A DNA stretch of 64,000 nucleotides from an uncultured virus (IMG/VR IMGVR_UViG_3300042865_001090). Lineage: Duplodnaviria; Heunggongvirae; Uroviricota; Caudoviricetes. The stretch lies in the IMG/VR virus record IMGVR_UViG_3300042865_001090; one strand, written 5' to 3'. The translations under genes and the position numbers were made by a program. Numbering within the stretch: position 1 is the stretch's first letter; every line of letters starts with the position of its first letter. The notes beneath the pieces were generated by a model, which worked only from the letters and a program-made list of their open reading frames with translations, was not told the origin of the DNA and made no database searches. Shown here in pieces: positions 5,911-64,000 of the stretch.

Positions 5911-5912
5911 AC

Positions 5913-7139: not shown

Positions 7140-7192
7140 TATTAAGTAGTATTATTTATTAAAACCATACACCTCGGGGAGAATGAACTGAG

Positions 7193-9756: not shown

Positions 9757-9843
9757 TCACTACTAAAAAAATAAAGGTATCTTGCCTAGATTTGGAATCA
9801 ACAGCAATTATGAAAAAAGAAACAATATTCCAATAGGTTCTTT

Positions 9844-11423: not shown

Positions 11424-11485
11424 AAAAGCCATTCTATACAGGATATATTGCAATACGGGCACCGATTTGTGTTACAATTTGGTCT
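11424..11485. promoter_or_regulatory. divergent leaderless promoters
   Basis: TAGAAT-N7-ATG on minus (11431-11436) and TACAAT-N7-ATG on plus (11473-11478); palindrome TATTGCAATA at 11446-11455 between them. Confidence 0.6.
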
Positions 11486-12136: not shown

Positions 12137-12204
12137 AAAGAGAGTTTTACTATGTTGCTAATTTTAGGCGCGCGATTCAGTCTAGGTGAACGGAGTACCC
12201 GTTC

Positions 12205-21262: not shown

Positions 21263-21269
21263 TTTATTG

Positions 21270-23364: not shown

Positions 23365-23818
23365 AACATGTCAACATATACCTAGTTCCACTAGAAACAG
23401 TGCTGACCAGGTGTGGCTCATCACCGGCATGAACAACCAATTGTGATGCAGATGGTCGCCAAACAGTGTTAAGACGCGGGTACACGAGGTCCCCACCCTC
23501 AAAGTTATCATTCAGATATACAACGCATCCGAATCTGCATGTCTTCTGATAGTTGTCAGTGTGTTCTCCCATTCCACCACCCTGGGAGATTCTTTGTATT
23601 CCACAAAATGGGCTTATAAAATCATAATCATCAAAATATAATTTAATTCGCTCATTTAACAAATCAAATATTGGTGATTGAAATGGGAATCTATTGCCAA
23701 CCCAATATTCCCCACCACCATTTTGTATTGACCAATCACTGCTACTCGCAGAATATGCGGTGCAGAGCAACTCAAGTCTTTCGTCTTCAGTTAGAAAAGA
23801 GTCGATGTGTAAAAGCAT
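23303..23818 (-). CDS. 2OG-Fe(II) oxygenase (prolyl 4-hydroxylase-like)
   Basis: MGEHTD, YLNDNFEGGDL, EPHLVSTVSSGTRY. Confidence 0.85.
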   Translation of the reverse strand: MLLHIDSFLTEDERLELLCTAYSASSSDWSIQNGGGEYWVGNRFPFQSPIFDLLNERIKLYFDDYDFISPFCGIQRISQGGGMGEHTDNYQKTCRFGCVVYLNDNFEGGDLVYPRLNTVWRPSASQLVVHAGDEPHLVSTVSSGTRYMLTCFVYGSETKNPSVNYELQHQN

Positions 23819-31528: not shown

Positions 31529-32258
31529 GCTCTAATGCGTAATACTCTATGGCCTTGACATTACCAGCAGCTCTAGCTGCATTTAGCTTTGCTGTAAGCG
31601 CCTTGATGTGGTCCGCCCCACCATTCTCATCATTGCCGGTTGATTTTTTGTTTGCAGGCACAAATTTCCCATGCTTAAAACGCGGCAATAGAATCATCGT
31701 TTTCCTACGTGGTATAAACTCGATAAGCGATAAGCTGACCGTAGCGCTCGTGGTGTTTGCTTGAAGGTTCTGCCTACCATGATTTATCGTGCACTCGTCT
31801 ATGTACCATTTGGGAATAGCGAGAGCTGGATGAACATTTATGAACTCAACTGGAATAGCAAAATCTGCAATTGATTGAATAAACCTAAGCTGGTCATCGA
31901 TTGATTCATAGAAGTCTTGATAAGTCTGCGAAGAAGGCTTACCGTCTTCCCCTGTAAGGGTGTTAATTCTTTTTGGTGGCGCAACAAGGAACTCGAAAGA
32001 ACACCGCTCCGCCTTGCCGCTTGTTATATCCACAATCGGCGTCGAATAGGGGCGATTGATTTCGTTGAATGTTGGCCCGTATCCACTGTGGCTAAAAGTC
32101 GTCGGAGGAAAATAGAATTCATAAGCAAGTTCAGGGCCTGCAACTTGGCGCATTTCCCTAATGTCGGAGGTATTACGCAGAACAGTAGCTGATTTTTGAA
32201 ACTGAAACTTGCCCGAAATTTGACTCGGTATTTGTTTGCCGATTATTGAAATTGCCAT
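31509..32258 (-). CDS. tail tube initiator / baseplate protein
   Basis: Directly downstream of the tape measure gene; EINRP...P, WYIDECTI, ATVSLSLIE. Confidence 0.55.
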   Translation of the reverse strand: MAISIIGKQIPSQISGKFQFQKSATVLRNTSDIREMRQVAGPELAYEFYFPPTTFSHSGYGPTFNEINRPYSTPIVDITSGKAERCSFEFLVAPPKRINTLTGEDGKPSSQTYQDFYESIDDQLRFIQSIADFAIPVEFINVHPALAIPKWYIDECTINHGRQNLQANTTSATVSLSLIEFIPRRKTMILLPRFKHGKFVPANKKSTGNDENGGADHIKALTAKLNAARAAGNVKAIEYYALELAEASK

Positions 32259-47116: not shown

Positions 47117-48421
47117 TCAGATGATTATAGACACCGGACGCCGCTGCGGCAACCCCAAGCCAGCTAAAAATGAAAAAGCTCCAACCGCCGAGTCCACCTG
47201 GTCGTCGTGGTCACAGGCCTCAGGGAAGGATGAAAATTCGTCGAACCAGTCGGTTAGCCATGAGCCTCGCACGACACGGACATTGCCATTTGCAACCGCT
47301 GCGGAAAAGGGTCGGGAACGGGTTAGCTTGTCTCCAGTGGAGCGTATTCCTTGAAAATCATACCCAGGAACGACATATCGGGCATATTGGTCAACTAGAG
47401 CCTTTCCAGACGAACCCGGTTCTTGCTCCATCCTGATTGCAACAGAGTGACCATCTTCATAAGCTGTTTGCGCAATTAGCTGTTCTACTTTTTCGTTTTT
47501 AACTCTCTGTCTGCGCACATCCAGAACATAGGCAATGCCCTGGTCGAAAAGCATCAGTGTTCCAACGGTGTAGTCGGGGTTCGGATTGCTAGACGATGGC
47601 TCGGTGGCCGCCAAGTCCCAGAATCTCACGGCACGTGCAGATGACAACACCTGTGGAACTTCAGAGGAATCAATAACAACAAAATTAGTTCTATCAAAAA
47701 GAGTTCCTAAAGTAGTAGCCCACCAGTCGCCCATCTCGAGCCTTCTGCGCTCAATCGGGTCCAGGGCGGACAGGGCCTGACGATATGAGTCAGCATCGAT
47801 TCCGGGGTTGTCAGTAAGCATCGACGGAACGAAAATCCTCCCAGAATCCGCTCCCTCCACGATGAATCTTTGTCTGACCCAGTTGGGTGCTGGGTTTGAA
47901 GCCGCCCTCATCCTCAGCGGAACCTTGGAAAGCTCGCCTGTTGCTGGTCGGCGCAAGCGAGAGAACAGGTATCGATAATCAGATTCCCTGATTTCGGTCA
48001 CCTCATCCATTCCAATAAATTGAAATTCCGAACCTTTATATCGAAGGTAGTCATTGGTGTTGTTCAGATACCCGAATGATATTCGAGCCCCAGACGGAAA
48101 GGTGGCTACATAGGTGCTGCCATTCCAATGGACTTCGTCATAATTTGAAATCCATGAGCGGAATCGGTCCATTAGGGCGCCAGGGAGCGCGAGGTCTGCG
48201 TAAGTCTTTCTAAAGAGAATCGCTGAATACCCAGGGATGTCAACGTATTGCATGGCCGACATAAGTAGGGCTGAACTCTTGCCTCCGCCAGCAGCCCCAC
48301 CGAATAATGCCTCTATAGAGTAAGAACGCAAAAATACTTTCTGAGTTATGGATGGCGCCTCAGGACAATAAAGCGGTTCCTTCGGTTTTAGATATTCGAG
48401 AACTTTGTCCCAATTCGTCAT
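47117..48421 (-). CDS. terL: terminase large subunit
   Basis: Walker A FGGAAGGGKS, Walker B IGMDE, ASNP motif III, RFWDLAA and HDDQVDS nuclease motifs. Confidence 0.92.
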   Translation of the reverse strand: MTNWDKVLEYLKPKEPLYCPEAPSITQKVFLRSYSIEALFGGAAGGGKSSALLMSAMQYVDIPGYSAILFRKTYADLALPGALMDRFRSWISNYDEVHWNGSTYVATFPSGARISFGYLNNTNDYLRYKGSEFQFIGMDEVTEIRESDYRYLFSRLRRPATGELSKVPLRMRAASNPAPNWVRQRFIVEGADSGRIFVPSMLTDNPGIDADSYRQALSALDPIERRRLEMGDWWATTLGTLFDRTNFVVIDSSEVPQVLSSARAVRFWDLAATEPSSSNPNPDYTVGTLMLFDQGIAYVLDVRRQRVKNEKVEQLIAQTAYEDGHSVAIRMEQEPGSSGKALVDQYARYVVPGYDFQGIRSTGDKLTRSRPFSAAVANGNVRVVRGSWLTDWFDEFSSFPEACDHDDQVDSAVGAFSFLAGLGLPQRRPVSIII

Positions 48422-48674: not shown

Positions 48675-50963
48675 ATGGCTTGGAACTCAACCAATAACAA
48701 ATCTGCTTCATCGTCAGGGCAAAAGTCCGCTATTGGACCTGGCGCCCCAGTTGCATACAACACCGGTCTTCAAGGTAAACCCTATAGGGACTCTTGGGAT
48801 ATCGAACGTGCATACAGAGAGGGAATGCAGAAGGTCACATGGGTTAATAGGTGTATTGACGCAATAGCAGGGAACCAAGCAAGACTTCCAGCAATACTCC
48901 GCGAAGACAATTCTCCAGACGGAAAAATTGTAACAAATAACAGAGACCATAAAATTCTCAATTTGCTAAACACTAAAGCAAATATTGGCGAAAACTCTTT
49001 TGTATTCAGATACAGGCTTTCTTCTCAGCTACTCATGTCAACCAGGGGTGCATTTATTGAGAAGGTTAGAGGGAGAAATGGTGGAGTCATAGCGCTACAC
49101 CTTCTTCCACCGCAACACACATCCCCAATTCCAGATGCAAAAAATTTCATTGCAGGTTTTGAAGTGGACATGCGGAACGGCACTAAAGCAATTCTAAAAC
49201 CGCAAGATGTCATATGGATTCGCAAGCCTCACCCCCTAGACCCATATCTGTCACTGACTCCACTTGAATCAGCTGGTGTCGCTATTGAAATAGAAAATCT
49301 TTCAAAAATTTATAACAGGAATTTCCTGCTCAACGACGGCAGGCCGGGTGGTTTGCTTGTTGTGCGAGGGGAAATAGATGACGACGACAAAGATGAATTG
49401 CGTAGTCGTTTCCGTGGAAATATAAATCGCGCCGGTGCAGTGACTGTCGTCTCATCAGACGAAGGTGTCGACTATGTGGATACTGGCTCAAATCCTCGTG
49501 ACGCCAACTACATCCAGATGCGACAAATCACCAAAGAAGAAATTCTTGCTTCCTTCGGAGTTCCAGAGTCAGTCATCGGCAATGCATCAGGAAGAACCTT
49601 CAGTAATGCCGCAGAAGAGCATCGAGTGTTTTGGAATGAAACAATGCTGCCGCACATGGAGCTGATTGGGCGCGGCCTAGATGAGCTAGATGATGAGTAC
49701 TACATTGACTTTGACACTTCGGAAGTTCCAATTCTTGTTCTTTACAAGCAAGAAAGAGAACGTTATTTGCTTGATGAATTTCAGAACGGTCTCATTAGTG
49801 GAAATGAATACAGAAGAGAAACGGGTCGAAAGAAAATTGATTCCGACCTAATGCAAGCAATGCTTGCCAATCCAAACCTCACGCCGATTGGATACACCGA
49901 TAAGAAGTTTGATTCAACACAACAGGCAGCACAAATGGCGGCTGCGGGTGGCGCGCAGCCGGGAATGCCCGGTGTTGCGGCGGCAGGAATGGTTCCAGAT
50001 GGACAACCACCAGCACCCGGACAAGAACCCACAGGGCAACCAGAACAGCCGGCTGCGCCAGGTGAGATACCTGCTCAATTAGTTAATTTTAATGAAAAAC
50101 CGAGCACCATGACTGAAGCGCTTGCCGCAGAAGGACAGGGGCAGCAGCAACCAGTGATGGCTTCGCCGACCGCACTATCAGCGTTTGATAACGGAATGCA
50201 GTTCAAGTCTGCCAATAAAGAACTTTCTGAGTGGGAGCAAAAAGCCGTTGAAAACGCGGACCGATGGGTTGAAATTCTTGATAGAAATGTTGAAAGATTC
50301 ATGGAGCGACAGCAGCGTGTCGTGATGGAAAAAGCTTCTGGAGCAAAATCAAAAAAACTAATCACCTCTGGCACCTTGACTGTAGAAAACATCTTTGATG
50401 AGCAGGTCTGGAATAAGCAGCTTGAAGAAGATGTAAAGCCAGTTATCGCAGGTATTTCTGCTGATGCCACGCGATTGGTGAGCGAACAAGCAGGAATGCC
50501 CGCGGACGAAAACTCAGAAGAAATGCAACAAGATATCGAATCGCAGATGGAGCGAATGAAGAAAATAAATTCAACAACCAAAGATGAAATAGCTTCAGCA
50601 ATTCTTATCGCTCTTGCTCTTGCAGATGACGAGGATAGGGTTGGAATGTTGAAAGCAGCCTTGCTCGCAATATTCATGAACCTGCTTTCGAAGCGCCGCA
50701 GGATAATCGCGGAACATGAGTCCCAAACTGCCTATAACTCTGGCGTTTATCATGCTGCCAAAGGGATAGGCGCATCGACGAAGACCTGGATTGCAAATAA
50801 GGATGCTCAGGTCAGGCCGGAACATAGATTGCTCGACGGAAATACAACATCGATTGATTCGGCGTTTAGTGTTTCAGGCAAGGACATTAGATTCCCAGGA
50901 GACCCACTGGCTCCGCCGCACCTAACAATTAACTGCAGGTGCAGACTGTCGTTCTCAATCTGA
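48675..50963 (+). CDS. HK97-type portal protein fused to a MuF/gp7-like head morphogenesis domain
   Basis: VNRCIDAIA, GLTP-like SLTPLESA, NDGRPGG, EILASFGVP, NEYRR; C-terminal KTW...D..VRPEH...FPGDP...INCRC. Confidence 0.88.
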   Translation: MAWNSTNNKSASSSGQKSAIGPGAPVAYNTGLQGKPYRDSWDIERAYREGMQKVTWVNRCIDAIAGNQARLPAILREDNSPDGKIVTNNRDHKILNLLNTKANIGENSFVFRYRLSSQLLMSTRGAFIEKVRGRNGGVIALHLLPPQHTSPIPDAKNFIAGFEVDMRNGTKAILKPQDVIWIRKPHPLDPYLSLTPLESAGVAIEIENLSKIYNRNFLLNDGRPGGLLVVRGEIDDDDKDELRSRFRGNINRAGAVTVVSSDEGVDYVDTGSNPRDANYIQMRQITKEEILASFGVPESVIGNASGRTFSNAAEEHRVFWNETMLPHMELIGRGLDELDDEYYIDFDTSEVPILVLYKQERERYLLDEFQNGLISGNEYRRETGRKKIDSDLMQAMLANPNLTPIGYTDKKFDSTQQAAQMAAAGGAQPGMPGVAAAGMVPDGQPPAPGQEPTGQPEQPAAPGEIPAQLVNFNEKPSTMTEALAAEGQGQQQPVMASPTALSAFDNGMQFKSANKELSEWEQKAVENADRWVEILDRNVERFMERQQRVVMEKASGAKSKKLITSGTLTVENIFDEQVWNKQLEEDVKPVIAGISADATRLVSEQAGMPADENSEEMQQDIESQMERMKKINSTTKDEIASAILIALALADDEDRVGMLKAALLAIFMNLLSKRRRIIAEHESQTAYNSGVYHAAKGIGASTKTWIANKDAQVRPEHRLLDGNTTSIDSAFSVSGKDIRFPGDPLAPPHLTINCRCRLSFSI

Positions 50964-51047
50964 CTTTACTAAAACTCGAGAATAGTTTCGCCAGAACTGT
51001 CTCATAATTGTTTATCATTGGATAAACACTATGGAAAGCGCCACAAC

Positions 51048-53663
51048 ATGAGCAATATTGCCAATGACTTTACTGAAACTCAATACAAAGCGATTCCTGG
51101 GCAAATCAACACGATTGAATCAAAGGGAATAGTTGAGTGTTTTGTTGCGGGCATTGGCAATAAGGACAGCGTAGGGGACATATGCCTACCTGGTTGCTTC
51201 AATGGCTCTCTTGGACGACGCAAGCCTCGCGTTGTATGGGGCCACAACTGGAACGAACCAATTGGAAAAGTTCTTGAAATTTACGAAGTTGGACCAAACG
51301 ACCCACGTCTTCCAGCGAAGATGAAAGCCAATGGTATTGGTGGTTTGTTTGCCAAAGTACAGTTCAACCTTGCTTCAGAGCGTGGTCGCGAAGCATTTGC
51401 AAACGTAAAATTTTTTGGTGAAGAGCAAGAGTGGTCAATTGGCTACAAGACTTTGGACGCAGTATTCGACACAACAAAGCAAGCCAACATGCTCAAAGAA
51501 GTTGAACTATACGAAGTCAGCCCTGTATTGCATGGAGCAAATCAGCTCACAGGAACAATTTCAATCAAGTCAGATAAGCAAAACGAAGAAGTCAAGGGCG
51601 GACCTTGTTGGGATGGCTACAAGCAAGTTGGGATGAAGAGGGGCAAGAATGGAAATATGGTTCCAAACTGTGTTCCCATTGAGGAAAAAGGAGAAAAGCT
51701 CAGGGACCCAAAGGGCGGCCTTACTGCTGCTGGTCGCGCACACTTCAAGCGCACGGAAGGGGCAAATCTGAAGCCAGGAGTTAAGGGAGCAGCAAATACG
51801 CCAGAAAAAATGCGCAGAAAAGGTTCTTTCCTAACTCGCTTCTTCACTAATCCATCTGGACCAATGAAGGATGAAAAGGGTCGCCCAACACGCCTTGCGC
51901 TTTCTGCAGCCGCATGGGGTGAGCCGGTGCCACAGGATACTTCTGATGCAGCAAAACTCGCAGCGAAAGGACGTCGCATGCTTGAGCGTTATGAGAATTC
52001 AAAGAAGAAGTCGAGTGAGGTTGAGATTGAAGAAAAAAATATTTCAATCTATTCCATCGCGAACCCATCCGAAAATCCAACAATGGGAAGAATGGGTTCA
52101 ATCGCAAAGGCAATTTCAACTCACTTTGGTGGTGAAGTCGCTGTCCGCGAAGCAGACAGCAACAACGTCGTGTTTGACCTCATGAAAGACGGAATGGTTG
52201 AGACAATGCGCGCTGCGTACCACACACAAAATGAGTCAGATTTTATGTTTGGCCCAGCCCAAAAGGTTAGAGTCGAAACGATTTATCTTCCAGTTGATTC
52301 AAACGGAGAAACATCCGGAGCACCAATACCAAAAAGCCCGAACATGCTCGCCGCGCCAAAGCCGGGAGGGTGCGGATGTGGCGGAGCGTGCGGTGGAAAG
52401 TCTGACCCATTTTCAAGTTGGGAAGAGTTCAAGAACGACAACCCGGGTGTCCATCTTTTCATCAAGACAGAAAACATGGAGATGTACGAAGTAGCGAACA
52501 ACGTTTCCGAGTATCACGGTTTTGACATTGAGCTACTCGCCGATGGATTTGTTGTTCCAAACATCGATTGGTATGAAAAAGACGCGCGAGATGCTGTGAT
52601 AACAGCAATTGAGAACGTTGAACAAAAGGCCATTGCAAGAGCCGCGCGCAGCGCTCGTGGTGTTGGTCGTTCGGCAAGAAGAATGGTTAATCCATCAGAG
52701 TTCGATGGAGATGGTGACGGATTCAGAACTGGGCGCGATGGCAGGGACAATGTTCCATACAAGAAGCCAAAGGCACCAAAGATGATGCCACCACGAACCG
52801 TTCCTCAAGAAATTCCAGAACGAGAAGAAAAACCACTTAGAATCCCTAAGCCAAACGAAATCCCTCGGCCGGCACCAGCACCACAGCCGGCTCCCGCACC
52901 AGCTCCCGCTCCGTCGGTCCCACAGAGAGTTCCGGAAAGACCCGGAATTCCCGCAACCATTACGGGTCGCACAAGAGGAGCTTCTGCCCTGAGGGCCGGA
53001 AAACTGGATTCCGCTATTTACAAGGAAAGAATGGCTGGAGCCTCCCTTGAGGATGTAGCAAAAAAATACGGTGTTGAAAGAATTGACGTTCGTCGAGCCG
53101 AACAGCGCCATATGCAAAAAATGAGGGCCGCAAAACAGAAACGTTCATCAATCCTGCAACAACTAAGAGACATGCAGGACGACCCGAGCATGCCTTCTGG
53201 TGTGCCGGAGAGGGCTAAAGAACGAGCCATATCCATGATTGCAGAGCAAAACAGTATGACGCCTGCTGGCGTTCGCAGGGCCATCAGAAGAGAGCTCGCT
53301 GCAGAAAGAATGACTCAAGCAGCAAATCAAATGAGAGGCAGAAGAAAGTCTCTTTCCTCTGTCTATGTTTCGGTGTCTGAAGGTAACGACATATCCGTTA
53401 AAACTGCCCTGCAAAGCACGGTTGACGACTCGGTACTTATCAAGGTTGAGCCCCAATTCGTATCGCAAGTAAAACAAGCGGTTGACACTGTTGCCGAATA
53501 CCACGGCGTGCGTATTTCTCGTGCCGAAAATGGAATTAACGTATTCGGAGCGCATGAATTGAATGACGACTCGATTGAGGCTATTTCTCGCGCGATATAT
53601 GCGTCGTATGTGGATAGCAATATTGAAGACATCGAAATGGACAGAATTTTCTCGAAGAGATAA
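51048..53663 (+). CDS. HK97-family prohead protease with a long multi-module C-terminal extension
   Basis: GNKDSVGD, WGHNW..PIG, WSIGY, ELYEVSPVLHGAN; then CWDGY..VPNCVP, DPKGGLTAAGR module, DGDGDG, Pro-rich linker, HTH-like segments. Confidence 0.85.
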   Translation: MSNIANDFTETQYKAIPGQINTIESKGIVECFVAGIGNKDSVGDICLPGCFNGSLGRRKPRVVWGHNWNEPIGKVLEIYEVGPNDPRLPAKMKANGIGGLFAKVQFNLASERGREAFANVKFFGEEQEWSIGYKTLDAVFDTTKQANMLKEVELYEVSPVLHGANQLTGTISIKSDKQNEEVKGGPCWDGYKQVGMKRGKNGNMVPNCVPIEEKGEKLRDPKGGLTAAGRAHFKRTEGANLKPGVKGAANTPEKMRRKGSFLTRFFTNPSGPMKDEKGRPTRLALSAAAWGEPVPQDTSDAAKLAAKGRRMLERYENSKKKSSEVEIEEKNISIYSIANPSENPTMGRMGSIAKAISTHFGGEVAVREADSNNVVFDLMKDGMVETMRAAYHTQNESDFMFGPAQKVRVETIYLPVDSNGETSGAPIPKSPNMLAAPKPGGCGCGGACGGKSDPFSSWEEFKNDNPGVHLFIKTENMEMYEVANNVSEYHGFDIELLADGFVVPNIDWYEKDARDAVITAIENVEQKAIARAARSARGVGRSARRMVNPSEFDGDGDGFRTGRDGRDNVPYKKPKAPKMMPPRTVPQEIPEREEKPLRIPKPNEIPRPAPAPQPAPAPAPAPSVPQRVPERPGIPATITGRTRGASALRAGKLDSAIYKERMAGASLEDVAKKYGVERIDVRRAEQRHMQKMRAAKQKRSSILQQLRDMQDDPSMPSGVPERAKERAISMIAEQNSMTPAGVRRAIRRELAAERMTQAANQMRGRRKSLSSVYVSVSEGNDISVKTALQSTVDDSVLIKVEPQFVSQVKQAVDTVAEYHGVRISRAENGINVFGAHELNDDSIEAISRAIYASYVDSNIEDIEMDRIFSKR

Positions 53664-53666
53664 TTC

Positions 53667-54038
53667 ATGGCTTCAGATTTTTTAAGTCACCTTGCTCGAT
53701 TGCGCGACAGCGCCATAGTGAATCACGACATGAAGTCTGTCAATAAATATAATGATGCAATCGACGACTTTTTGGAACTTAGCAAAAAACAAGAAAATTC
53801 GATTGCTCCTCGAACGGCAAAAAAGAAGTCATCGCGCTTCACTGTTAGCAAGCGGAGACCAAACGTCAGCCGTGAATCCTCTTCTATGGGTTATGCTAAA
53901 CCTATACATAATCAACGGATTTTAAGTAAATACAACTGCATGGTTACCGGAGAAAAGCGCATGAATCCATGCGCTGGCTGTAGTAACGTACAAGGTTGTA
54001 TTTCCAATTCAATGCAGTACAAGGAGCACCAAGCATGA
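53667..54038 (+). CDS. hypothetical protein with a C-terminal Cys cluster
   Basis: CMVTGE...CAGC...GC, similar to CGFDRK...CDSCPGGC in the next gene. Confidence 0.55.
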   Translation: MASDFLSHLARLRDSAIVNHDMKSVNKYNDAIDDFLELSKKQENSIAPRTAKKKSSRFTVSKRRPNVSRESSSMGYAKPIHNQRILSKYNCMVTGEKRMNPCAGCSNVQGCISNSMQYKEHQA

Positions 54039-55540
54039 GCGAAAAAGCAGCAGTCGTAAAGTTGAATGCTGACGGCGAAGTTGTTAGTTGCGCCAAAGGC
54101 CTCGGCTCGGATGAGTGTGGATACACGCCAGGCGCAAAAGTTTGTGGAAAGTGCGGAGCAATGGCTGTCTCTGTAAAGAAGAAAGAAGATGTTGACGTTA
54201 AGGCCGCCAAGAAAAACATGCTAAACATGGCCGCAATGGATTCTGACCTGGATGAAGAAATGTCCATGGAAGATGAAGAAAAAGATGACGACATGGAAGA
54301 CATGGAGCTCGTTGATGACGAAGAGGACATGGATGAAGAGGACATGGACGACGAAGACGACGAAGACATGGCCGCAGATGACGACGAAGAAGACGAAGAC
54401 ATGGAAGACCTTGACGGCAAAATGTATGATGATGAATCAGTAGACGAAATGTTCGTCCGTCGTTCTGCGCCAAAGAAGAAAAAGAAAGGCGCCATGATGA
54501 TGGGGCCAGACGCTGAAGTAGAACTAGACGAAGACGAAAAAGACATGGATGGCATGTACTCAGATGAATCTTCAGTTCGCAAAAAGATGCGCAGACGCAG
54601 ACTCGGAACAATGGGGTACAAGTCAGCAGATTTTGACGACAACGCATTCGTTTGTGGATTCGACCGCAAGGTCTACCCAGGCGGCGCAAATGTTTGCGAT
54701 AGCTGCCCAGGCGGTTGTGTTTCCGAAAAGGGAATGCCAGCCCTGATTGAAATTGAAGGCATGGCAGAAGACATGTTTAGAGGCAAGGTTCTCGATTCTG
54801 GATATTCAGATGAAGCAGACCTGTTTATAGTTGATGTTGAGAGAAAAGACGGAAAGCCAGTCGAGGTGTTCTTCGATGGTTCAACCGGCGAAGTCATGGG
54901 CTGGCACATGCTCACTCAGGATGTCGTGCAGGTTAAGTCTGCGCTGCAAAACAAGGTGATGATTAGCTTTGGTGAAGCAGCAGATATTGCTGTTAAATCG
55001 GTTGAAGGTGACATCATTGCTGTTGAACCAGATGTTTTTGAGGGATTTGATGTTTACGCAGTAGAAATCGAGGGCCTCAATGGCAAGTCGTATGACGTGT
55101 TTGTTGGGCTCGATGGTGAAGTGCTTGGATACGATGAGTATACGCAGGAAGAAGCTTCAGAGATTGAAGCCGAAGCGGCGGAAATTGCGCTGAAGCGTGC
55201 CTACTCGGAAGATTCGCGCACATCAATGGCTCAAGCCGGGCAGGCACTTGCAGATGGTTCATTCCCAATCAAGGATGAAGCAGACTTGAAGAATGCAATC
55301 CAGGCTTACGGTCGCGCAAAAGACAAGACAGCAGCAAAAGCTCATATCATGAAGAGAGCTGTTGACCTTGGCATGGAAGAAATGATTCCTTTGAGCTGGG
55401 TCTCCAAGGAAGATATGGACAAAGCCAAAAAGGACTACGCTGCTGAAGAGAAGTCAGAAGTGACGGATTTCTTGTCAAACTTGATGGAATTCGAAATGCT
55501 TTCCATCGAAGAGGAAATCAACGAACCAAAACCTGAATAG
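54035..55540 (+). CDS. acidic head-associated protein: Zn ribbons, Asp/Glu tract, two PepSY-like domains
   Basis: AAGGAG SD; CGKCGA; EAADIAVKSVEGDIIAVE...YAVEIEG..GKSYDVFV..DGEVL PepSY pattern; ALADGSFPI...NAIQAYGRA module. Confidence 0.65.
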   Translation: MSEKAAVVKLNADGEVVSCAKGLGSDECGYTPGAKVCGKCGAMAVSVKKKEDVDVKAAKKNMLNMAAMDSDLDEEMSMEDEEKDDDMEDMELVDDEEDMDEEDMDDEDDEDMAADDDEEDEDMEDLDGKMYDDESVDEMFVRRSAPKKKKKGAMMMGPDAEVELDEDEKDMDGMYSDESSVRKKMRRRRLGTMGYKSADFDDNAFVCGFDRKVYPGGANVCDSCPGGCVSEKGMPALIEIEGMAEDMFRGKVLDSGYSDEADLFIVDVERKDGKPVEVFFDGSTGEVMGWHMLTQDVVQVKSALQNKVMISFGEAADIAVKSVEGDIIAVEPDVFEGFDVYAVEIEGLNGKSYDVFVGLDGEVLGYDEYTQEEASEIEAEAAEIALKRAYSEDSRTSMAQAGQALADGSFPIKDEADLKNAIQAYGRAKDKTAAKAHIMKRAVDLGMEEMIPLSWVSKEDMDKAKKDYAAEEKSEVTDFLSNLMEFEMLSIEEEINEPKPE

Positions 55541-55610: not shown

Positions 55611-58600
55611 GTGGCTAATTCATATTCCAATTTCGCAGAACGCAGGATAAACAACCTGTCCAAGAATGGCGAATTAGAAATAGGTTTCATTCCCAAAATA
55701 GAGACCAAGGCCGAAAAACCAGAAGTAAATAAGCCTCCAGTAAAATATTCAAACCCGTATGAAGAATACATAAAGACATGGGAGCCGGGGGACGTAATAC
55801 CGCTTGTTCCACCAGGCAAGAGAATGCATTTTTGCACTTTCAACCCAAATATGCTGGATACAGATTCAACATTTTTTAGGTCAACACACAAACATTCCTC
55901 TCCGACGAAATTTAAATCGGGTGAACTGAATGACATCGAGTACAAGGTCCTTGGAAGGAAACTAAAGGACAGCCTTGACTCGCTACTGCGAAGAGCAGCC
56001 AAAACAAGAGGCTTATGGGTTGACGATAAAAACAAGCTTCGCTGCCCTCCGGGAACACCAGCTGCAAACCAATTTACAGACATAACTGGCTCTAACTGCT
56101 TCATACCGTCACCAAGAACTGCCGCACAAAGTGGAGCTCGTGCAGTGCGTAGAGCAACAGCTGGCGCAACCCAGATGTCAACCCAGGTTGGCGGAAGAGT
56201 TGCTAGTGGATTCGATGCAGCTAGAGCAAACGCTGAACAAATTAGAGAACTTGGTTTTGAAAGAGTTCAAGAAGCAATGGGGTACGGTGGCAGAATTGCG
56301 CCCACTCCACAAATGGTTAGCGATACAGTCTCGGGAGCCATGAGGGCTACGAGGTTTGGTCTCATACCAAACCCTTCAGCGAGAACTGGAGGCAAGCAGC
56401 GTGGAGCACCGAAGGGCGTCGGCAACAATGTGTGGCAGCTTGGATTAAAAGAACAAGTCTGGAGAGGCAGAAGAGCCACCGAACTTGCTCGCTCCACAAG
56501 GGATAGATTTAATAACCCAAACCGACCAGACGGACTAAGACTCCCACCGAGTCAGAACTTCCCGGCCGGTAGACCAATCGGCGACATAAGCCAAAAGGCT
56601 CAATTCGTTTCCGCAATGGCCGAACTATTTCCAAACGTTCCACAAGCAGAAATAGAAGAAATGTTTGACCAAGCAATTCCAATGAGCTTGAGCAGGATGG
56701 AAAGGTCAAAACTGAAGGCATCTTTGATTCAATACTGGTACTCCTGGATGGAAAATGCAATTGCAAATCCAGAGCAGGCAAAATGGGTTACCTCTTTCGC
56801 GATAGATACGGAAATGGGGTCAGCGTTCGAAGTTAGATTTGATGCATTTGCTCCCTCGCCTTCAACGGGAGGAAGAAGAATTAGCCAAGCAGCATCAAAC
56901 GCGGCTCAGGGAAGAACCGCAGAACAGGGTGGACTTCAGTTCTCCCTTGTTATGAATCCATGGGAAATGTGGTCACAGGTAAATCGCTCGGGCTTTGACA
57001 GAAATGGTCGAGCAAATGGAGTCGCTGATTCTGTTGAGGGTGACATGCACTATTTGGCCAACCATGAGTGGGGCCACGTTGCGCACTTCTCGAGTGTTAT
57101 GGAGACACTTGGATTCCAAACGCAAAATCTTCAGAGATATCCGCTTGCACAAACACTCGTAAAACCACAGCAGGGTGGTCCCCAGTGGCAAAGACAGAAA
57201 CAAGTCAATGCATGGATGATTGACTTTAGGCAAGCTGCGAATCCAACAGGAAACAGAAGTATTCAGCTGTTAATCGACTCAGCAAACAATCTAAGCAGAA
57301 GGCAATATATTCGCTCTGGAAGTTGGGGAGGTTCGACCGGGTACACAAGGCAAGACCTGGAGACCGATTTAAACAATTTTCATAATGCGCTAGCTGAGGC
57401 AATTGAAAACAACATCACCGATGATGCTGACGACCAGGAGTTGATGAGACAGTTTTCTGGTGGTGTTTATGCGGCAACATCAAACATAGAAGCCCGCGCA
57501 GAGTTCTTCGCATCCCGAAGATTGTTTGGAGACCCGGTACTAACAGGTGGGCAAACAGGAATCCCATCCACGGTTGATGAGTTCGCGCGAACAATGGCTT
57601 CAGCCCAGGGAGCCACACGGACGCAGGCACAATACCGTTCCCAGATGGACGACATTGGACAGAATGTTTTTAGTGTTCCTGGAAACGCATGGAATATTAG
57701 TGGTCGCATGGCTGGTTCTGGATTGCCACAACAAAGGCCAACACTTAAAACACAGGCCGTCAGAAGAGCTGTAGACCAAAACTATCCACGAAGCAATAGA
57801 AATAGGAGTTCCTCGGCTATTACTGGAGCAATGAGGTCATCCTCATTACAGCAGAGAACCACTTCTTCTCGTGACTGGAAAAATCAAGACACGATAAGTT
57901 CAATAAACACAAACAGGCCATTCACCGAAGAGCGTCAATCGCTGCCGGGAATGCTGCAATCAGCATTGGGAACTCAGCAATCATCTACACCAATCGTTGG
58001 AAGGATGTCCCCGCTGGTGCCAACAACGGTCACGGGTGTTAGGAATCGTTTCGATGGCAGCAGGTCTGGTGATGTCGACATCAAGGTCCACGAAATAAAC
58101 GGCGAAAAAATAGTATTTGATAATCCCGACGCAATATCAATCGATGACTCATCAATAAAAATTATTCCTAAAAACCCATTTGAGATAACCGGAAAATCCA
58201 GAACCAGTAAGGAAGGTCGCGAATATTCAGAGAAGTGGCTCAATGCCCATCTAGGCAAAGGAGACATGGATTCGAATGATGTCGACGCCCTTCTGTATCG
58301 AGCATCACGCGGTGACACGGAGGCAGCAAAGGAATTCGATGGTTTAGCGGAAAAAGGAAGCAAGCGAGTCTCTGAAGCAGAAGGAAAATTGTATGAACCC
58401 ATCGAACTTGATGAATACCAGGAAAGAACAATAACCCGAGCTGGTCTTGAGGATTTGAGCCTAGATGACTTGTATGTTGTACATGAAACAAGTTACGAGC
58501 CAGAAATTGATGAAAATGGAGACATAAGCATCTCTCCTCGTTCTAACTTTGAGGAAACAACTGAATCCGGAAAGAAGGTAAGGGTTCCTCGCCACACGAT

Positions 58601-61600
58601 TCACTTCGCATTAAATCACCTTGTTGGTGGACATATATTTAGGCAGCGCTCAGAAAAAGATACGACTATCTTAATAGCGCCACTGTCTCAGGTGCTAAGA
58701 GACAATCCAGATTCACTCGACAATCTATATACGCTTGATACTGTTCTTACACCAAAACCTGGTGAGGGGATAAAGCTCAAATCAGGAAGCTTCCGAAGAC
58801 TCACTGGTACACCAGACAAAGAAGCAACAGAAGAGGCTGTTCGTCAGCAGCTAAACGAAATGGGTGCAACAAAGATTTTTAAAGCAGAATCAGCAGAGTC
58901 TTCAACTGACGCACAGGATTTAGCAGTCGGCAAAATAGCCAGGCAGCTGAGAACCCAATCGGGATTGCACGCAAACATCCCAAGCGGACAGGTCGAGCAG
59001 TATTTGATTCGCCAGGCTGGAAGTGGTGGTAGCGCTGAAGTGACGCTTCCGCCTAGTTGGGTGGCCGGAATGAGCAAAAACCATCGCCAAAGACTTGGTG
59101 ATTCAAACTTCTGGAGCGATGCGAAACCAGCCCCAATCACCGGCTTTATGAGAAGCGGCTCGACCCCACAAGCAGGACAGAGCAGAATCAAGAAAAACAA
59201 AGACGGTGTGCCTCAGTACCCACGGACGCCAACCTACGGTCCAATGCTCGGTGAAACAGAAAATATTTTTGCTGGAGTTAATTCTTGGGAAGAATTTAAA
59301 CAGAGATATAATGACCAGGAAATAGTCTTTCTTGATTATGAAACAACTGGTTTAGTATTCGACAAATATGGTCGCGCTACGGAAAACGGAAATCCGGTAG
59401 AAATAGGCGCAATAAAAGTAAAAAACGGACAAGTAATAGACAGATTCAACACATTTGTCAATCCGGGAAAGCCTCTGCAGCAATGGTCTAAAGACAACTT
59501 GCGCGACGCAGACGGAAACCCCCTCACTGACCAATACCTACAGGGGGCTGAGTCTTTGGAGTCTGGGCACAAAAAACTTGTTGAATTTGCTGGACCAAAT
59601 GCAATTATGGGTGTTCAAAACGCCGCATACGACAAGAACGTACTTGAAGACACTCTCCGTGAAGCGGGAATTGAATGGCAAGCAAGGGGCTGGATTGACC
59701 TCAAAGATATGGCCGGCATGACACTCCCAAGGTACACAGATGAAAATCCGGATGGACCACATAAGACAAATAAAGATGGAACAAAATCACCATCCAATGG
59801 ACTTGCGGACATAACAAGATACCTCGGGGTCCCTCTTGGCAAAGAGCATCATAGAGCAGACAAAGACGCTGAAGCAACAGCGGAATCAATGCGTCTTTTG
59901 ATTGATGGTGCAATTGAAAAGAATTGGTCAAAAGACGCTCTGGATAGAGCCAAGCGAAGTGCGTACGTCAAAAAAACACAAGACGATTTTGACTCAGATG
60001 TAAAAGAATGGGAGTCCGAGCTTGCAAAGTACTTAGGTGATGGAGTGTCGGGAAAGATGTCGTCATCACCTGCTTTGCGCTCTGCTCCACAGTTTGGCAG
60101 AAGACAGTCTCGTGAGTTCTATAGCTCGGTACCAAACAGTAAATTATGGAGACCGGAAACTCTCGAGCAAAGCGAACCATCACGAATTGCGAAAAGACAA
60201 GAAATAATCAAAGACATCAAAGGATTCATAGAGTCTGGCGATGGCGACGCAAAATACATGTCTGCAATGAATGGACTTGACCCAGAATTTGCTAACTACA
60301 TGCGCAATACCGAAGACCGCGAGATTCTGGCAGACCTTCGTCAGGCAGCAGTTGAATTTCATGCTGGCATCGACCAGAGACCACGTCTAAACGTAAACAC
60401 TGCAGAACTTTCGAGCTTAATGGAAAATGGGCTACGAAGAGACGATTCAGGCAAACCGCGACGTCTGTCAGAGAGAGTAAAAGCCTACGAAGCAGACATT
60501 GGAATTTCTCCAGACCTTCCCGACGCAGAACGCCCAATAACTGGATACATGGTGCATTCCGATGGCGACTTCGCTGAACAAGAGGCTTCATTTAGGGAGT
60601 TTTCTAATAAAGTTGATGTCAATTCTCCACGTTATAAGTTTGACCTTTTTAAGTCAAGTAACGAAAATCGCAACAATGGTTTCAATTCTATTTTTGGTGA
60701 TGCTGAAATAATTCTAAAACCAGAAACCGGCCAAAGGACAGCTTACGGCAACGGTGACGCCCTTGATAATCACATATTTCCTGTCCTGGCAAACTCAACA
60801 GATTCTGACGAAATAGGTCGCGCACTCATTGACCCTAACGGAAGATTTGACGAACGTGAATCAAATTCCATCGAACTTCTCTATGGAAAATTTAAAAATG
60901 ATTTCAATGCCTACAGAAAAGATAACGGTCAAACTCGTCCACGGATAAGCGGAGCATGGGGAAATAGGGACGCCCTGATTATGGGCGGAATAGAGCCGAG
61001 TGATATCGAAGAGGTGAGGGTTCCGTTTAATTCTCTAGATATTACAAACTCAACCACGCCGGAAGAATTTGCAAAAAAACCAAGAGAACTTAAGTACTTA
61101 CCCGTTACTGAGTATGTAGACGAAGGCCCTGCGATTGCTTCCTCCGGCGCAGGAGCACCACCGCCGCCACCACCGCCAGATGACCCTGACAACAACATGA
61201 CAGACGAAGAAATTTCTAAAATTCAAGAAAAAATGAAACGGAGTTTTGCGGCCACAAAAGAAGAGCAAAAAATAATCGAAGATATTTTGTCTGGGTTAGA
61301 GCCAATTAATGCGATACCCAAAAATTTAGCCATACGAATTGACAACGTTAACGAATACAGGAAAATCTCAGACGACTTTAGAAATCTAAGAAGAATTGAA
61401 GAAGCCGAAAGACTTCAGAGATTAGCGAAAGCAAGAGGTTTTAATCTTGCAGTAACCAATGACTACGGATTGGACGTATTTGATGGGCGCTCATTCTCAA
61501 GTAAGGCTCCCAAGTCAAAAACATCAAAAGAAGTTATTGAGGCAAAAATAGACAAGCAGATAGAAGAACTTGTTGAGTCAATGCGTCAGGCAAAGTTCAA

Positions 61601-61691
61601 AAACATTAAAAATATTTCTGACTCCAGAAGCAGACTGGAAAAGATACAGGAAGAGTTTGATAAACTCACAGACGGCAGGAATGAAAAGTGA
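55611..61691 (+). CDS. 2026-aa polyvalent protein: zincin metallopeptidase, unknown domain, DEDDh 3'-5' exonuclease, DUF3626-like domain
   Basis: HEWGH...YAATSNIEARAE; IVFLDYETTG, NAAYD, HRADKDA; ERPITGY...FGDAEIILK...RTAYGNGD...IMGGIEPSDI. Confidence 0.75.
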   Translation: MANSYSNFAERRINNLSKNGELEIGFIPKIETKAEKPEVNKPPVKYSNPYEEYIKTWEPGDVIPLVPPGKRMHFCTFNPNMLDTDSTFFRSTHKHSSPTKFKSGELNDIEYKVLGRKLKDSLDSLLRRAAKTRGLWVDDKNKLRCPPGTPAANQFTDITGSNCFIPSPRTAAQSGARAVRRATAGATQMSTQVGGRVASGFDAARANAEQIRELGFERVQEAMGYGGRIAPTPQMVSDTVSGAMRATRFGLIPNPSARTGGKQRGAPKGVGNNVWQLGLKEQVWRGRRATELARSTRDRFNNPNRPDGLRLPPSQNFPAGRPIGDISQKAQFVSAMAELFPNVPQAEIEEMFDQAIPMSLSRMERSKLKASLIQYWYSWMENAIANPEQAKWVTSFAIDTEMGSAFEVRFDAFAPSPSTGGRRISQAASNAAQGRTAEQGGLQFSLVMNPWEMWSQVNRSGFDRNGRANGVADSVEGDMHYLANHEWGHVAHFSSVMETLGFQTQNLQRYPLAQTLVKPQQGGPQWQRQKQVNAWMIDFRQAANPTGNRSIQLLIDSANNLSRRQYIRSGSWGGSTGYTRQDLETDLNNFHNALAEAIENNITDDADDQELMRQFSGGVYAATSNIEARAEFFASRRLFGDPVLTGGQTGIPSTVDEFARTMASAQGATRTQAQYRSQMDDIGQNVFSVPGNAWNISGRMAGSGLPQQRPTLKTQAVRRAVDQNYPRSNRNRSSSAITGAMRSSSLQQRTTSSRDWKNQDTISSINTNRPFTEERQSLPGMLQSALGTQQSSTPIVGRMSPLVPTTVTGVRNRFDGSRSGDVDIKVHEINGEKIVFDNPDAISIDDSSIKIIPKNPFEITGKSRTSKEGREYSEKWLNAHLGKGDMDSNDVDALLYRASRGDTEAAKEFDGLAEKGSKRVSEAEGKLYEPIELDEYQERTITRAGLEDLSLDDLYVVHETSYEPEIDENGDISISPRSNFEETTESGKKVRVPRHTIHFALNHLVGGHIFRQRSEKDTTILIAPLSQVLRDNPDSLDNLYTLDTVLTPKPGEGIKLKSGSFRRLTGTPDKEATEEAVRQQLNEMGATKIFKAESAESSTDAQDLAVGKIARQLRTQSGLHANIPSGQVEQYLIRQAGSGGSAEVTLPPSWVAGMSKNHRQRLGDSNFWSDAKPAPITGFMRSGSTPQAGQSRIKKNKDGVPQYPRTPTYGPMLGETENIFAGVNSWEEFKQRYNDQEIVFLDYETTGLVFDKYGRATENGNPVEIGAIKVKNGQVIDRFNTFVNPGKPLQQWSKDNLRDADGNPLTDQYLQGAESLESGHKKLVEFAGPNAIMGVQNAAYDKNVLEDTLREAGIEWQARGWIDLKDMAGMTLPRYTDENPDGPHKTNKDGTKSPSNGLADITRYLGVPLGKEHHRADKDAEATAESMRLLIDGAIEKNWSKDALDRAKRSAYVKKTQDDFDSDVKEWESELAKYLGDGVSGKMSSSPALRSAPQFGRRQSREFYSSVPNSKLWRPETLEQSEPSRIAKRQEIIKDIKGFIESGDGDAKYMSAMNGLDPEFANYMRNTEDREILADLRQAAVEFHAGIDQRPRLNVNTAELSSLMENGLRRDDSGKPRRLSERVKAYEADIGISPDLPDAERPITGYMVHSDGDFAEQEASFREFSNKVDVNSPRYKFDLFKSSNENRNNGFNSIFGDAEIILKPETGQRTAYGNGDALDNHIFPVLANSTDSDEIGRALIDPNGRFDERESNSIELLYGKFKNDFNAYRKDNGQTRPRISGAWGNRDALIMGGIEPSDIEEVRVPFNSLDITNSTTPEEFAKKPRELKYLPVTEYVDEGPAIASSGAGAPPPPPPPDDPDNNMTDEEISKIQEKMKRSFAATKEEQKIIEDILSGLEPINAIPKNLAIRIDNVNEYRKISDDFRNLRRIEEAERLQRLAKARGFNLAVTNDYGLDVFDGRSFSSKAPKSKTSKEVIEAKIDKQIEELVESMRQAKFKNIKNISDSRSRLEKIQEEFDKLTDGRNEK

Positions 61692-62104: not shown

Positions 62105-62749
62105 ATGAGTCTGGTCAACAAAATTATGAATGGCGATGTCCAAATTGCCGTCGACACAAAAGCAGCAGGACCTGCTGGCGCCATAATACCTCAAGAAAAT
62201 ATTACCGGTGATGTACTCAGGGGGTATGGACCGCGCAGGGGCAATCTTGAGCGCCTCCTTCGTTACTGGAGACCAATTATGCGCAAGCCTGGCGGGTTCA
62301 GGAGATGCCGAGTAATTCTTGCCGACCACCCAGAGCTTTACCCACTTGAAAGAATATGCGCCTGGTTGCATCACGAAACAACTGGTCTGTGGCCAAATGA
62401 AGGGTGCCACCACCCAGGAATGAAAAACTGTCGCAAGAAGATGCGCGGGGTTGTTCGTGGCTCACTCTACTCTGACCAGGAATTCAACAATAGAATGCGC
62501 AAACTGACATCGCGCAGTGGCAGGAAGGCTGTAGAATTTACGGGTATACGCTCGGTTGATGAGCCCTTTTCCCCAGTCATCACGCAGGATGATTGGACCC
62601 ATGCAGTGAAAGTATTACAAGATTTCATAGACATGGAACCGGACTTCGTTAAGTACGTGGAAGACGAAAAAAACTGGGAACACGTCGATGGGTATGTTAT
62701 CGATAAAAACGAATTGGAGTCGCTAGATGCGAACAATATTGAGTTCTGA
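62105..62749 (+). CDS. head-module hypothetical protein
   Basis: AAGGAG SD; LLRYWR...GGFRRC...CAWLHHETTGLWP Cys/His motif. Confidence 0.6.
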   Translation: MSLVNKIMNGDVQIAVDTKAAGPAGAIIPQENITGDVLRGYGPRRGNLERLLRYWRPIMRKPGGFRRCRVILADHPELYPLERICAWLHHETTGLWPNEGCHHPGMKNCRKKMRGVVRGSLYSDQEFNNRMRKLTSRSGRKAVEFTGIRSVDEPFSPVITQDDWTHAVKVLQDFIDMEPDFVKYVEDEKNWEHVDGYVIDKNELESLDANNIEF

Positions 62750-64000
62750 TTGCTGCCCGTCCCAGGAGATTGTAAAAGTTAGACATATTTCTCCGTCTTT
62801 CGCACTATCTAGAACTAACCTTTTTACAGCGCCAATTTATTCTGTCAACGAAAGAAAATCAATTATTGATTTCAAATGCGCAATGCAGCGCAGAGGCGTA
62901 AAAAGTGCTTACGAAATAAAAGTCGGAGCGACTGGCTCGGACAGCAGAATTCTTCAATCTCTCCAGGGACTTGGTTCTGCCGTTACTCCGGGAAACTTTT
63001 CCAACGTGCGAAGTCCTGTTAGGTCACGAATTTACTCAGCTCTCACCCCGGGTGGTGGTCGAGGAGTTCCTGGTGGATTTGGCGCACTCAAGCCAGAGCG
63101 TGGATATAGATGTCCAGAAGGGTATCAATTCGGTGGAAGATTTACTGACTCACGTTTTTCTACATGTGGAAAACAACTATTCGACCTTCCTGGAATCATA
63201 GGCGCAACAATCGCCTCTGTTTTGCGTGGCTCTCGTCGTAGCCCATCCTTCCAGGATGTCGGTGGCACACGTGTTAAGCCAGTGTCTGTGGCTGGTGACG
63301 TAATCCAGTCGCGCGCGCCACAAATTCCAAAAGTTACTGGTGCTAACAGACAGCGCAGAAATCGCTCCGTCGATGACATAGTCGGACAGATGTCGCAGGT
63401 AAATGAAGCCTACATGAGAATGGTGCGGCGCGACGGCTTCATCTTGGAGCCGGTAGTTTCTCCTGCAGTTCTTAGGACAATCCCCGACAACAGAGATATG
63501 GAAGGCGCAACATTCCTGATGAATGCTTTGACGTCGGATTCAATTGGTGGAGAAGAACTTGGAATGCTTTCGAATACCGGCATTGAAAAACTATCCTATG
63601 TCCTATCTGGAGGTTCAACTGTTTCCATCGGGAAAGCTCGCCCGCTAACAGTTGGAGAACGACGCAAGCTTGGTAGAACTGTGGCCACGGCGGAGAAGCT
63701 GCGTGCCAATGATGACCCGGTTCAAAAATTAAAATTCATCGCAGAGGAAATGGGCGATGGAATATCTTATGAAGAAGAGTTTAAAGGAATAAAAAACCCG
63801 AATGAAATCATTAAAGTCAACCTCCCAGCAGGTGCTGGCAAGCGAACAATGCGCAGGTGGCATTATGAGACTTTCTATCGAAAGAAAAAGAAGTCAAAGC
63901 AGTCCGCTCGCTCCACAGAGCTAGAAGCAATTCCCGAAGACGATAAAATCAAAGACCTTGCTTCTGCGGTCCGTCACCTTAATAATGGTGGTTCGATTGA
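62727..64000 (+). CDS. large head-module protein, truncated by the window end (not in the ORF track)
   Basis: GGAG-N7-ATG at 62727; open to 64000; contains GYRCPEGYQFGGRFTDSRFSTC. Confidence 0.75.
   Translation, partial: MRTILSSDCCPSQEIVKVRHISPSFALSRTNLFTAPIYSVNERKSIIDFKCAMQRRGVKSAYEIKVGATGSDSRILQSLQGLGSAVTPGNFSNVRSPVRSRIYSALTPGGGRGVPGGFGALKPERGYRCPEGYQFGGRFTDSRFSTCGKQLFDLPGIIGATIASVLRGSRRSPSFQDVGGTRVKPVSVAGDVIQSRAPQIPKVTGANRQRRNRSVDDIVGQMSQVNEAYMRMVRRDGFILEPVVSPAVLRTIPDNRDMEGATFLMNALTSDSIGGEELGMLSNTGIEKLSYVLSGGSTVSIGKARPLTVGERRKLGRTVATAEKLRANDDPVQKLKFIAEEMGDGISYEEEFKGIKNPNEIIKVNLPAGAGKRTMRRWHYETFYRKKKKSKQSARSTELEAIPEDDKIKDLASAVRHLNNGGSI

Follow-up and report, generated by a model that had tools for sequence, protein, structure and literature searches.

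Phage polyvalent proteins were defined by Iyer et al. in 2017, in a paper whose available text reports metallopeptidases (MPTases) in 36% of them and proposes autoproteolysis (PMC5512222). Zincin processing of polyvalent proteins is thus an idea already known since 2017 that, as far as that text goes, came without sites at which to test it (PMC5512222). ADP-ribosyltransferase (ART) and NUDIX domains have since been described in head proteins, in the accessible part of Iyer et al. 2022 (PMC9503650). Here we analyse a 64,000-base stretch of DNA (the window) from the uncultured Caudoviricetes virus IMGVR_UViG_3300042865_001090, corresponding to bases 12,674-76,673 of the 160,282-base virus record, and in particular the gene for P2026, a 2026-residue polyvalent protein punctuated by a short repeated motif that we call the tag. 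We find that the tag belongs to a real, genome-wide junction code in head-module polyvalent proteins; it spans at least four giant proteins, its wording switches by clade, and it is larger than the initial annotation of this DNA had seen. Our preferred reading, to which we assign a probability of roughly 0.5, is that the lethal-factor-like zincin of P2026 recognises the tag as a cleavage site, both in cis and in trans. That the tag is cleaved by a protease of one kind or another we consider likely.

Results

A repeated tag marks the junctions of P2026

The existence of the P2026 open reading frame (ORF) was confirmed, and its features are as follows (class A denotes relatives whose tags share the form ISGxM).

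55611-61691, + strand: P2026, polyvalent protein of 2026 residues, supported by its ORF, tags and bridging contigs
56040-56105, + strand: Cys module (RCPxG...QFTD...C), common to two other head-module proteins and found 1-4 times in 29/29 modules
56328-56345, + strand: tag 1, VSGAMR, border of Cys module and zincin; pattern at the same junction in 4/8 class A orthologues
56340-57707, + strand: zincin with the fold of lethal factor and Pro-Pro endopeptidases (PPEPs), residues 244-699; HEWGH at 57063-57077, EARAE at 57489-57503
57696-57713, + strand: tag 2, ISGRMA, zincin end; a tag lies 211-269 residues after HExxH in 7/8 class A orthologues
57819-57836, + strand: tag 3, ITGAMR, closing a 41-residue basic spacer
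57993-58010, + strand: tag 4, IVGRMS, start of the HET cassette
58005-59147, + strand: mobile HET domain (VHET...HTIHFALNH), family unassigned, residues 799-1179; 536 homologues at E ≤ 0.001
59136-59153, + strand: tag 5, ITGFMR, start of the exonuclease cassette
59148-60056, + strand: DEDDh 3'-5' exonuclease cassette, residues 1180-1482; PF00929 at E 1.7e-12, NCBIfam DEDD families
60045-60062, + strand: tag 6, VSGKMS, end of the exonuclease and start of the ART cassette
60057-61688, + strand: ART-fold cassette, DUF3626-like; residues 1540-1830 modelled
52959-52976, + strand: ITGRTR, decayed tag copy; the aligned position reads ITGRMG in loci L006-L009 and VAGRMA in L010-L011

The six copies of (I/V)(S/T/V)GxM reported in the initial annotation are all where it had placed them (residues 240, 696, 737, 795, 1176 and 1479), compared with 0.014 expected from composition; 20,000 shuffles gave a maximum of two copies, reached once. 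This pattern was fitted post hoc to P2026 and proved predictive outside it: [IVL][STVA]GxM occurs 20 times in the 12,722 residues of the head module (7 in P2026 and 1, 1, 2 and 9 in the next large proteins) versus 3 times in the other 34,602 residues of ORFs. Twelve further tags lie in three giant head-module proteins past the window (P2129, a 784-residue protein and P3915). The three matches outside the head module all fall in one 1648-residue ORF (32258-37204, - strand), probably the tape measure, where they read LTGAMG, IAGAMS and VSGAMG in Gly/Ala/Met-rich sequence. The seventh match in P2026, the looser ITGYMV (60537), forms a strand within the ART fold and does not mark a junction; GYM sites were excluded from the codon, class-enrichment, segment, local-shuffle and first border analyses and kept in the later cross-class border tests. 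Two similar motifs had been pointed out in neighbouring proteins, of which ITGRTR (52959) is a decayed site, whereas IVGQMS (63378) is probably incidental, because on sequence comparison it lies within a conserved region and more distant orthologues in class A do not keep it at that position.

Gain, loss and reordering of cassettes take place at tags, and class A and C tags end in ATG, as might be expected if the tag acted in the DNA, either as a site where recombination shuffles cassettes or as a start for internal translation. The codons argue otherwise. They vary, as had been stated, although the earlier list of gga, ggt and ggc was incomplete (GGA twice, GGG twice, GGT and GGC). The tag Ser is encoded by both TCN and AGY, the class B anchor by CTN, TTC and TTT, and in comparison with L011, 13/24 core codons are synonymously different and 2 are changed in residue. 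Synonymous identity among the tags of one genome is 0.31, versus 0.29 between genomes and 0.29 from codon usage; tags within a genome are no more alike in their synonymous codons than codon usage would predict, and therefore the signal lies in the protein, as originally proposed. A DNA repeat or internal start is thereby largely refuted, and we regard a DNA-level role as highly improbable.

P2026 joins unrelated enzyme domains

Residues 1-243 of P2026 contain the Cys module, which in the form RCPxG...(Q/R)FT(D/N)...C lies near the N-terminus and also occurs at window positions 63108-63175 and at residue 184 of P2129. No tag lies upstream of it in 32/32 large proteins, and it is a candidate packaging address for capsid targeting. 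A DGDGDG mini-motif is repeated in three proteins of the window genome.

The HEWGH zincin is intact, with HExxH and, on the following helix, ExxAE invariant in 22/22 aligned orthologues. Structure prediction, one of the checks proposed earlier, gave a lethal-factor-like fold for this segment and an ART fold for the last cassette. In particular, a zincin model built from 14 sequences (predicted local distance difference test score of 80) best matched the catalytic domain of lethal factor (1yqy; Z 8.8, root-mean-square deviation (rmsd) 4.0, 184 aligned), followed by other zincins including PPEP-2/3 (Z 5.3-5.5). Neither the whole protein nor the zincin segment matched MPTase-PolyVal (PF18818) at E ≤ 0.01; a different cassette in relatives does match that family (E 3e-38). 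The two short spacers described after the zincin are basic and of 41 and 58 residues.

The HET domain had no match in Pfam, NCBIfam, Atlas or PDB sequences, and profile searches of the zincin, ART and HET alignments against PDB sequences gave nothing meaningful. The assignment of a DEDDh exonuclease was borne out by the PF00929 and NCBIfam DEDD matches, and only this domain was matched in a tblastn search of 50,697 GenBank phages. The suggested ART fold of the DUF3626-like domain was likewise recovered, its model matching SopF (Foldseek E 6.8e-4; VIA-align Z 9.9, rmsd 3.5, 187 aligned) and then DarT, OspC3 and CopC. The cassette resembled an Atlas DUF3626 cluster (look-alike score 0.91, 39% of members DUF3626); 0/19 aligned ART-cassette members matched the DUF3626 profile (PF12294), and two other cassettes of relatives did. 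In five relatives (G008, G010, G021, G028 and G030) the ART cassette is split, its N-terminal part lying in the zincin protein and its catalytic part forming a separate downstream gene.

The wording of the tag switches by clade

A capsid query identified 389 relatives in IMG/VR, of which 80 were kept, and an N-terminal query found 28 loci. The analysis covered 29 head modules, of which one was that of the window and 28 were picked for length and diversity, a non-random sample that includes some fragments and in which five of the last ten were chosen for looking rearranged or short of the P2026 gene. The P2026 orthologues span 1,713-2,771 residues and differ by whole tag-bounded cassettes, with local wordings favoured (for example ISGRMG or LTGAMS). 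A motif search across related head modules, as had been suggested, did recover tags, but a de novo search showed that their wording differs by clade. In particular, 24/29 modules were strongly enriched in one of five patterns, with 7-50 sites versus about 1 expected: class A, ISGxM (8 modules); class B, R(L/F/M)SSG, typically RLSSG (11 modules); class C, GPVGxM (1 module); class D, G(M/F/L)(R/A)S (3 modules); and class E, STRS (1 module). Four of the five classes have in common a Met/Leu/Phe anchor with small neighbours. The classes track the backbone tree, in which A and B are separated with support 1.0, and the 24 genomes hold 210 cassette clusters, 149 of them singletons. In the tagless modules a de novo search returned low-complexity patterns only (best p 1.6e-6 to 4e-5), although a sparse tag could have gone unnoticed, given that the same search overlooked the weak tags present in G033 and G044.

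Motifs of this kind could in principle be a by-product of Gly/Ser-rich linker composition, with no reader at all. Tag flanks are mildly polar (22-25% hydrophobic residues versus 27%), and the genomes used to count patterns B-E are those that had supplied them, so that their p-values are post hoc. However, local shuffles in 61-residue windows give 1.1 sites where 130 class A sites are found and 2.4 for the 173 of class B, each genome uses one class, and transferred cassettes are re-tagged (see below). We give this explanation hardly any weight.

Tags lie at the borders of shared cassettes

The placement of tags at domain borders, proposed for P2026, extends to its homologues. In an unmasked cross-class BLAST comparison run at four settings, 23-47 of 419 sites fell inside shared domains versus 88-119 at random, and 0/3000 simulations were as low. 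A first test with motifs masked had given 5/176 inside versus 31; masking itself can break alignments, and the unmasked repeat is preferred. Out of sample, among the best 150 of 536 HET homologues, a tag lay within 85 residues upstream in 34/90 testable cases and downstream in 11/39, versus 13/421 internal windows; at least 3 of the 34 upstream-tagged homologues are near copies of pattern-fitting proteins, and distant homologues are mostly tagless.

Cassettes shared between classes carry the tag of the genome in which they reside. The exonuclease cassette is present in 10/29 modules, and the resident tag precedes its DxE by 45-62 residues in 10/10 genomes and follows it by 234-250 residues in 9/9 internal copies. 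The exonuclease tree splits into two lineages with full support, both of which mix members of class A and class B, and monophyly of class A or of class B is rejected (approximately unbiased test, p 8e-97 and 2e-9); the window's own cassette is 55% identical to that of one class B phage and 40-44% identical to those of three class A phages. This history reflects either transfer or old duplication with losses, and on both accounts the flanks track the genome and not the cassette. The zeta-kinase cassette likewise has the resident tag 41-141 residues upstream in 9/9 among the copies listed. Because the flanking tags follow the genome and not the cassette, the tag must be read by a genome-wide factor acting in trans.

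The embedded zincin and the S78 protease as candidate readers

The initial annotation had suggested the embedded zincin as the cutter, and this is supported indirectly: the tag is found in 24/24 modules with the zincin and 0/5 without it, a distribution that amounts to one or two independent contrasts. No tag enrichment was seen in two partial marine loci without the zincin gene. In one tagless module (G041), four shorter proteins each have their own Cys module, a single case that fits separate addressing replacing processing. Between classes the zincins are 11-23% identical, compared with 22-39% within classes. Lethal factor and the Pro-Pro endopeptidases are site-specific endopeptidases, and thermolysin-like and lethal-factor-like enzymes prefer a hydrophobic S1' residue. 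The Met/Leu/Phe anchor of the tag fits this preference, and an alignment of the classes on Gly is possible too. The directly upstream gene, kept in all five zincin-less modules, was considered as a PepSY-type zincin inhibitor and set aside as weak, its match being below the cut-off.

Alternatively, the tag could be cut by another protease. Candidates are the proteasome-beta-like protein of the phage, a host enzyme that acts once the proteins have been injected, and the S78 prohead protease, if it had a second specificity. S78 is encoded in the module and in several clades forms the head of a tagged polyprotein of 2,300-4,900 residues (it is fused to tagged polyproteins in classes B and D); Arg or Lys directly precedes Met in 59/130 class A sites; and in giant phages a single short motif, AXE, is where the prohead protease cuts a large number of head proteins, according to the available part of the source (PMC10052503). 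Yet the S78 domain is 62-77% identical across classes, with one class-diagnostic column (E/D), and its likely sites (xK|S/A/T, VK|DV) are kept in 26/26 capsid proteins, those of tagless genomes included, whereas the tag is absent from all of them (0/26). These sites form a second motif class, a hydrophobic residue and Lys followed by Ser/Ala/Thr/Asp (EIKTIG, EFKSLA, NVKDVY; capsid gene at L003:12769-14109, and window 51018-51100), which is about 3-fold enriched in the N-terminal parts of the large proteins and which likely represents the S78 sites. As for the proteasome-subunit-like protein, it is encoded in the genome (L134:8781-9473, - strand), as is an M24 peptidase (L134:14831-15664, + strand); methionine aminopeptidase could trim products that start Met-Ser/Gly/Ala. 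Altogether we consider cleavage by another protease unlikely.

Several observations weigh against the zincin as reader, or against cleavage as such. In one tree the tagless modules group as a single clade (0.914), in another as two; they are smaller (4.3-6.0k versus 6.6-12.7k residues), and 3/5 of them hold other intact HExxH...ExxAE zincins. The zincin tree mirrors the backbone tree, with no signal of co-evolution beyond kinship, and the fast divergence of the zincin also fits an arms-race effector. The structural match is modest, a Z of 8.8 being barely over the typical background best of 7-8, and a Foldseek search of the zincin model against PDB gave no match at E ≤ 0.001. The register between classes is ambiguous, and the anchor of class E is Thr. 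Some borders are tagless, with 1,771 residues of P2129 and the whole P2026 orthologue of G044 devoid of tags, and 66/355 internal segments are shorter than 60 residues, some of only 7, which fits multivalent binding too. Finally, the virion polymerase of phage N4, which contains an HExxH domain, is packaged uncut according to the accessible text (PMC5512222).

Tags as packaging or docking signals

The initial annotation had offered a packaging signal as an alternative to processing. We consider this role less likely, given that 29/29 modules, tagless ones included, contain a separate N-terminal Cys module. A related possibility is that the tag is a non-cleaved docking peptide, tethering proteins to the prohead interior (for example to the capsid delta domain) or serving as an ejection handle. 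The shell is of the HK97 type, and encapsulin peptides such as TVGSL bind HK97-fold shells, as described in the part of the source available (PMC8346489); some tags lie in tandem, 7 residues apart, and many spacers are short; and all capsid columns that distinguish class A from class B, six in number, map to the delta domain (positions 4-84). However, the delta domain in any case varies more than any other part of the capsid protein, the mature capsid has no class-separating column, docking does not need a tag on both sides of each enzyme, and tagless genomes, which have the Cys module as well, keep module proteins of 1,100-2,500 residues. Docking appears rather unlikely to us.

Genomic setting, host and occurrence

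The neighbours of P2026 in the window are the following.

47117-48421, - strand: terminase large subunit, divergent from the head module (Pfam Terminase_6C/6N)
48675-50963, + strand: portal fused to MuF (PF04860 E 9e-51, PF04233 E 8e-11)
51018-53663, + strand: S78 prohead protease with C-terminal modules (PF04586)
53996-55540, + strand: 514-residue protein directly upstream of the zincin gene (weak PepSY match, PF03413 E 0.004, below cut-off)
62727-64000, + strand: 5' part of a conserved 683-residue protein with Cys module and IVGQMS at 63378, continuing past the window

Past the window follow proteins of 683, 2129, 126, 784 and 3915 residues and then an HK97-type capsid gene. P3915 (L003:676-12423) holds NUDIX, sigma-70 region 4 helix-turn-helix (HTH) repeat, DnaJ and zeta-toxin kinase cassettes among nine tags. 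RNA polymerase was not detected in domain scans of the window and head module. Other strains have 468 nt in place of 228 nt of the S78 gene (window 53114-53343), a short way past the decayed tag, the proteins being of 881 versus 961 residues. The 683-residue protein (window 62727-64000, L001:1401-3452) is kept in 29/29 modules and has no Pfam, PHROG or NCBIfam match; its C-terminal half presumably resembles a HipA/PI3K-type kinase, a pattern judged by eye. Elsewhere in the window, five tandem 2OG-Fe(II) oxygenase genes (20654-23818, - strand) lie close to glycosyltransferases, a sulfotransferase and a methyltransferase, a possible virion or DNA modification cluster. An Mtd_N protein of 1605 residues and four kelch-like paralogues, three of which begin MADKNFKVKNGL, occupy 1093-16451 (+ strand).

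The host is probably an actinobacterium, because the genome carries two WhiB genes; whiB serves as a marker of an actinobacterial host in the available portion of a published study (PMC10914622). Labels of Phycisphaerae or Gammaproteobacteria hosts came from three contigs of metagenome-assembled genomes (L196-L198) that are probably mis-binned, and were not used; L196 has class D tags, and neither the zincin gene nor tags occur in the covered part of L197-L198.

Near-identical DNA is present in lake-water metagenomes. Single contigs bridge P2026 in 2 of the 4 lake-metagenome runs examined. Among the best-supported variants listed, a single one, an in-frame 3-nt deletion, lies inside P2026, and those listed for the 4 runs include no cassette-skipping joint there. 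At least half of the sampled words of the P2026 gene were found in 20 runs from 20 studies (7 of these runs being possible sources), and no RNA dataset is among the listed runs that hold the gene. The phage family is thus one that is common in lakes.

Discussion

If the zincin of P2026 is the reader, N-terminal modules such as the Cys module would bring long precursors to the prohead, S78 would trim the N-terminal portions of these at Lys sites like those of the capsid protein, and the zincin would cut the tags in the head or following ejection, probably immediately N-terminal to Met/Leu/Phe. These cuts would set free enzymes of 15-60 kDa, among them the exonuclease, ART, zeta-type kinase and NUDIX, with which the host would be taken over. 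Drift of the zincin would shift every site in a genome together, and cassettes that arrive would be re-tagged; we propose this as the cause of a pattern that is itself observed. At slightly less than even odds, we tentatively extend this to a private, evolvable proteolytic code in abundant aquatic actinophages, in which one zincin serves up to about 12,000 residues of cargo over several genes and has switched specificity at least four times, with all 7-50 sites following and borrowed cassettes being re-tagged.

If correct, this would provide a natural series of orthogonal site-specific proteases and, for the MPTase processing of polyvalent proteins that has long been proposed, the first site grammar to be mapped, and hundreds of uncharacterised phage effector domains could be cut at their true borders. 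The tags delimit domains objectively, and a candidate enzyme with more than 400 candidate sites and five alternative codes makes cross-specificity testable with synthetic genes and no phage culture.

We did not find an explicit clade-switching junction code in print in a search mostly outside the coverage of subscription journals, and the 2017 supplements may list such proteins. Among described systems, the prohead protease gp245 of SPN3US likewise uses one short motif, AXE, cut repeatedly in many head and ejection proteins, but in the available account it removes propeptides from N-termini and has the capsid protein among its substrates (PMC10052503), whereas the tags described here lie between enzyme cassettes, do not track S78 and are absent from the capsid protein. 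The tag thus lacks what marks an S78 substrate, the same motif in capsid precursor and substrates. Encapsulin cargo-loading peptides are also short Gly-containing motifs associated with an HK97-fold shell; in the part of that source available they are mostly terminal and single (PMC8346489), and our tags are internal, up to 50 per genome, at both cassette ends and clade-variable. The virion RNA polymerase polyproteins of crAss-like phages (10.1101/2020.03.07.982082) and of N4 (PMC13434306) are likewise giant and virion-packaged, with a zincin suspected of processing, and packaging would be shared by P2026; in the accessible parts of those sources, however, RNA polymerase is present, which we did not detect here, a site code is not described, and the N4 polymerase is uncut.

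The zincin itself shares its fold, HExxH and a distant Glu with anthrax lethal factor and the Pro-Pro endopeptidases (Z 8.8 and 5.3-5.5), but it is 7-12% identical to them and is a domain of a head-module protein, and the toxin's other parts are unmatched. The closest likeness is to the polyvalent proteins as the available text presents them (PMC5512222): P2026 is large, lies near head genes (among those for portal, MuF, prohead protease and capsid), combines unrelated domains (zincin, DEDDh exonuclease and ART fold; zeta kinase, NUDIX, HTH and DnaJ in P3915), varies in domain architecture among its relatives and embeds an HExxH...E zincin of the kind proposed as the processor, and class B and D relatives carry ArdC-N and MPTase-PolyVal cassettes. 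Like self-processing polyproteins, it has conserved border sites. Unlike the polyvalent proteins in that text, in which we found no recognition motif (PMC5512222), P2026 carries a zincin that is not PF18818 and a tag that spans genes and switches by clade.

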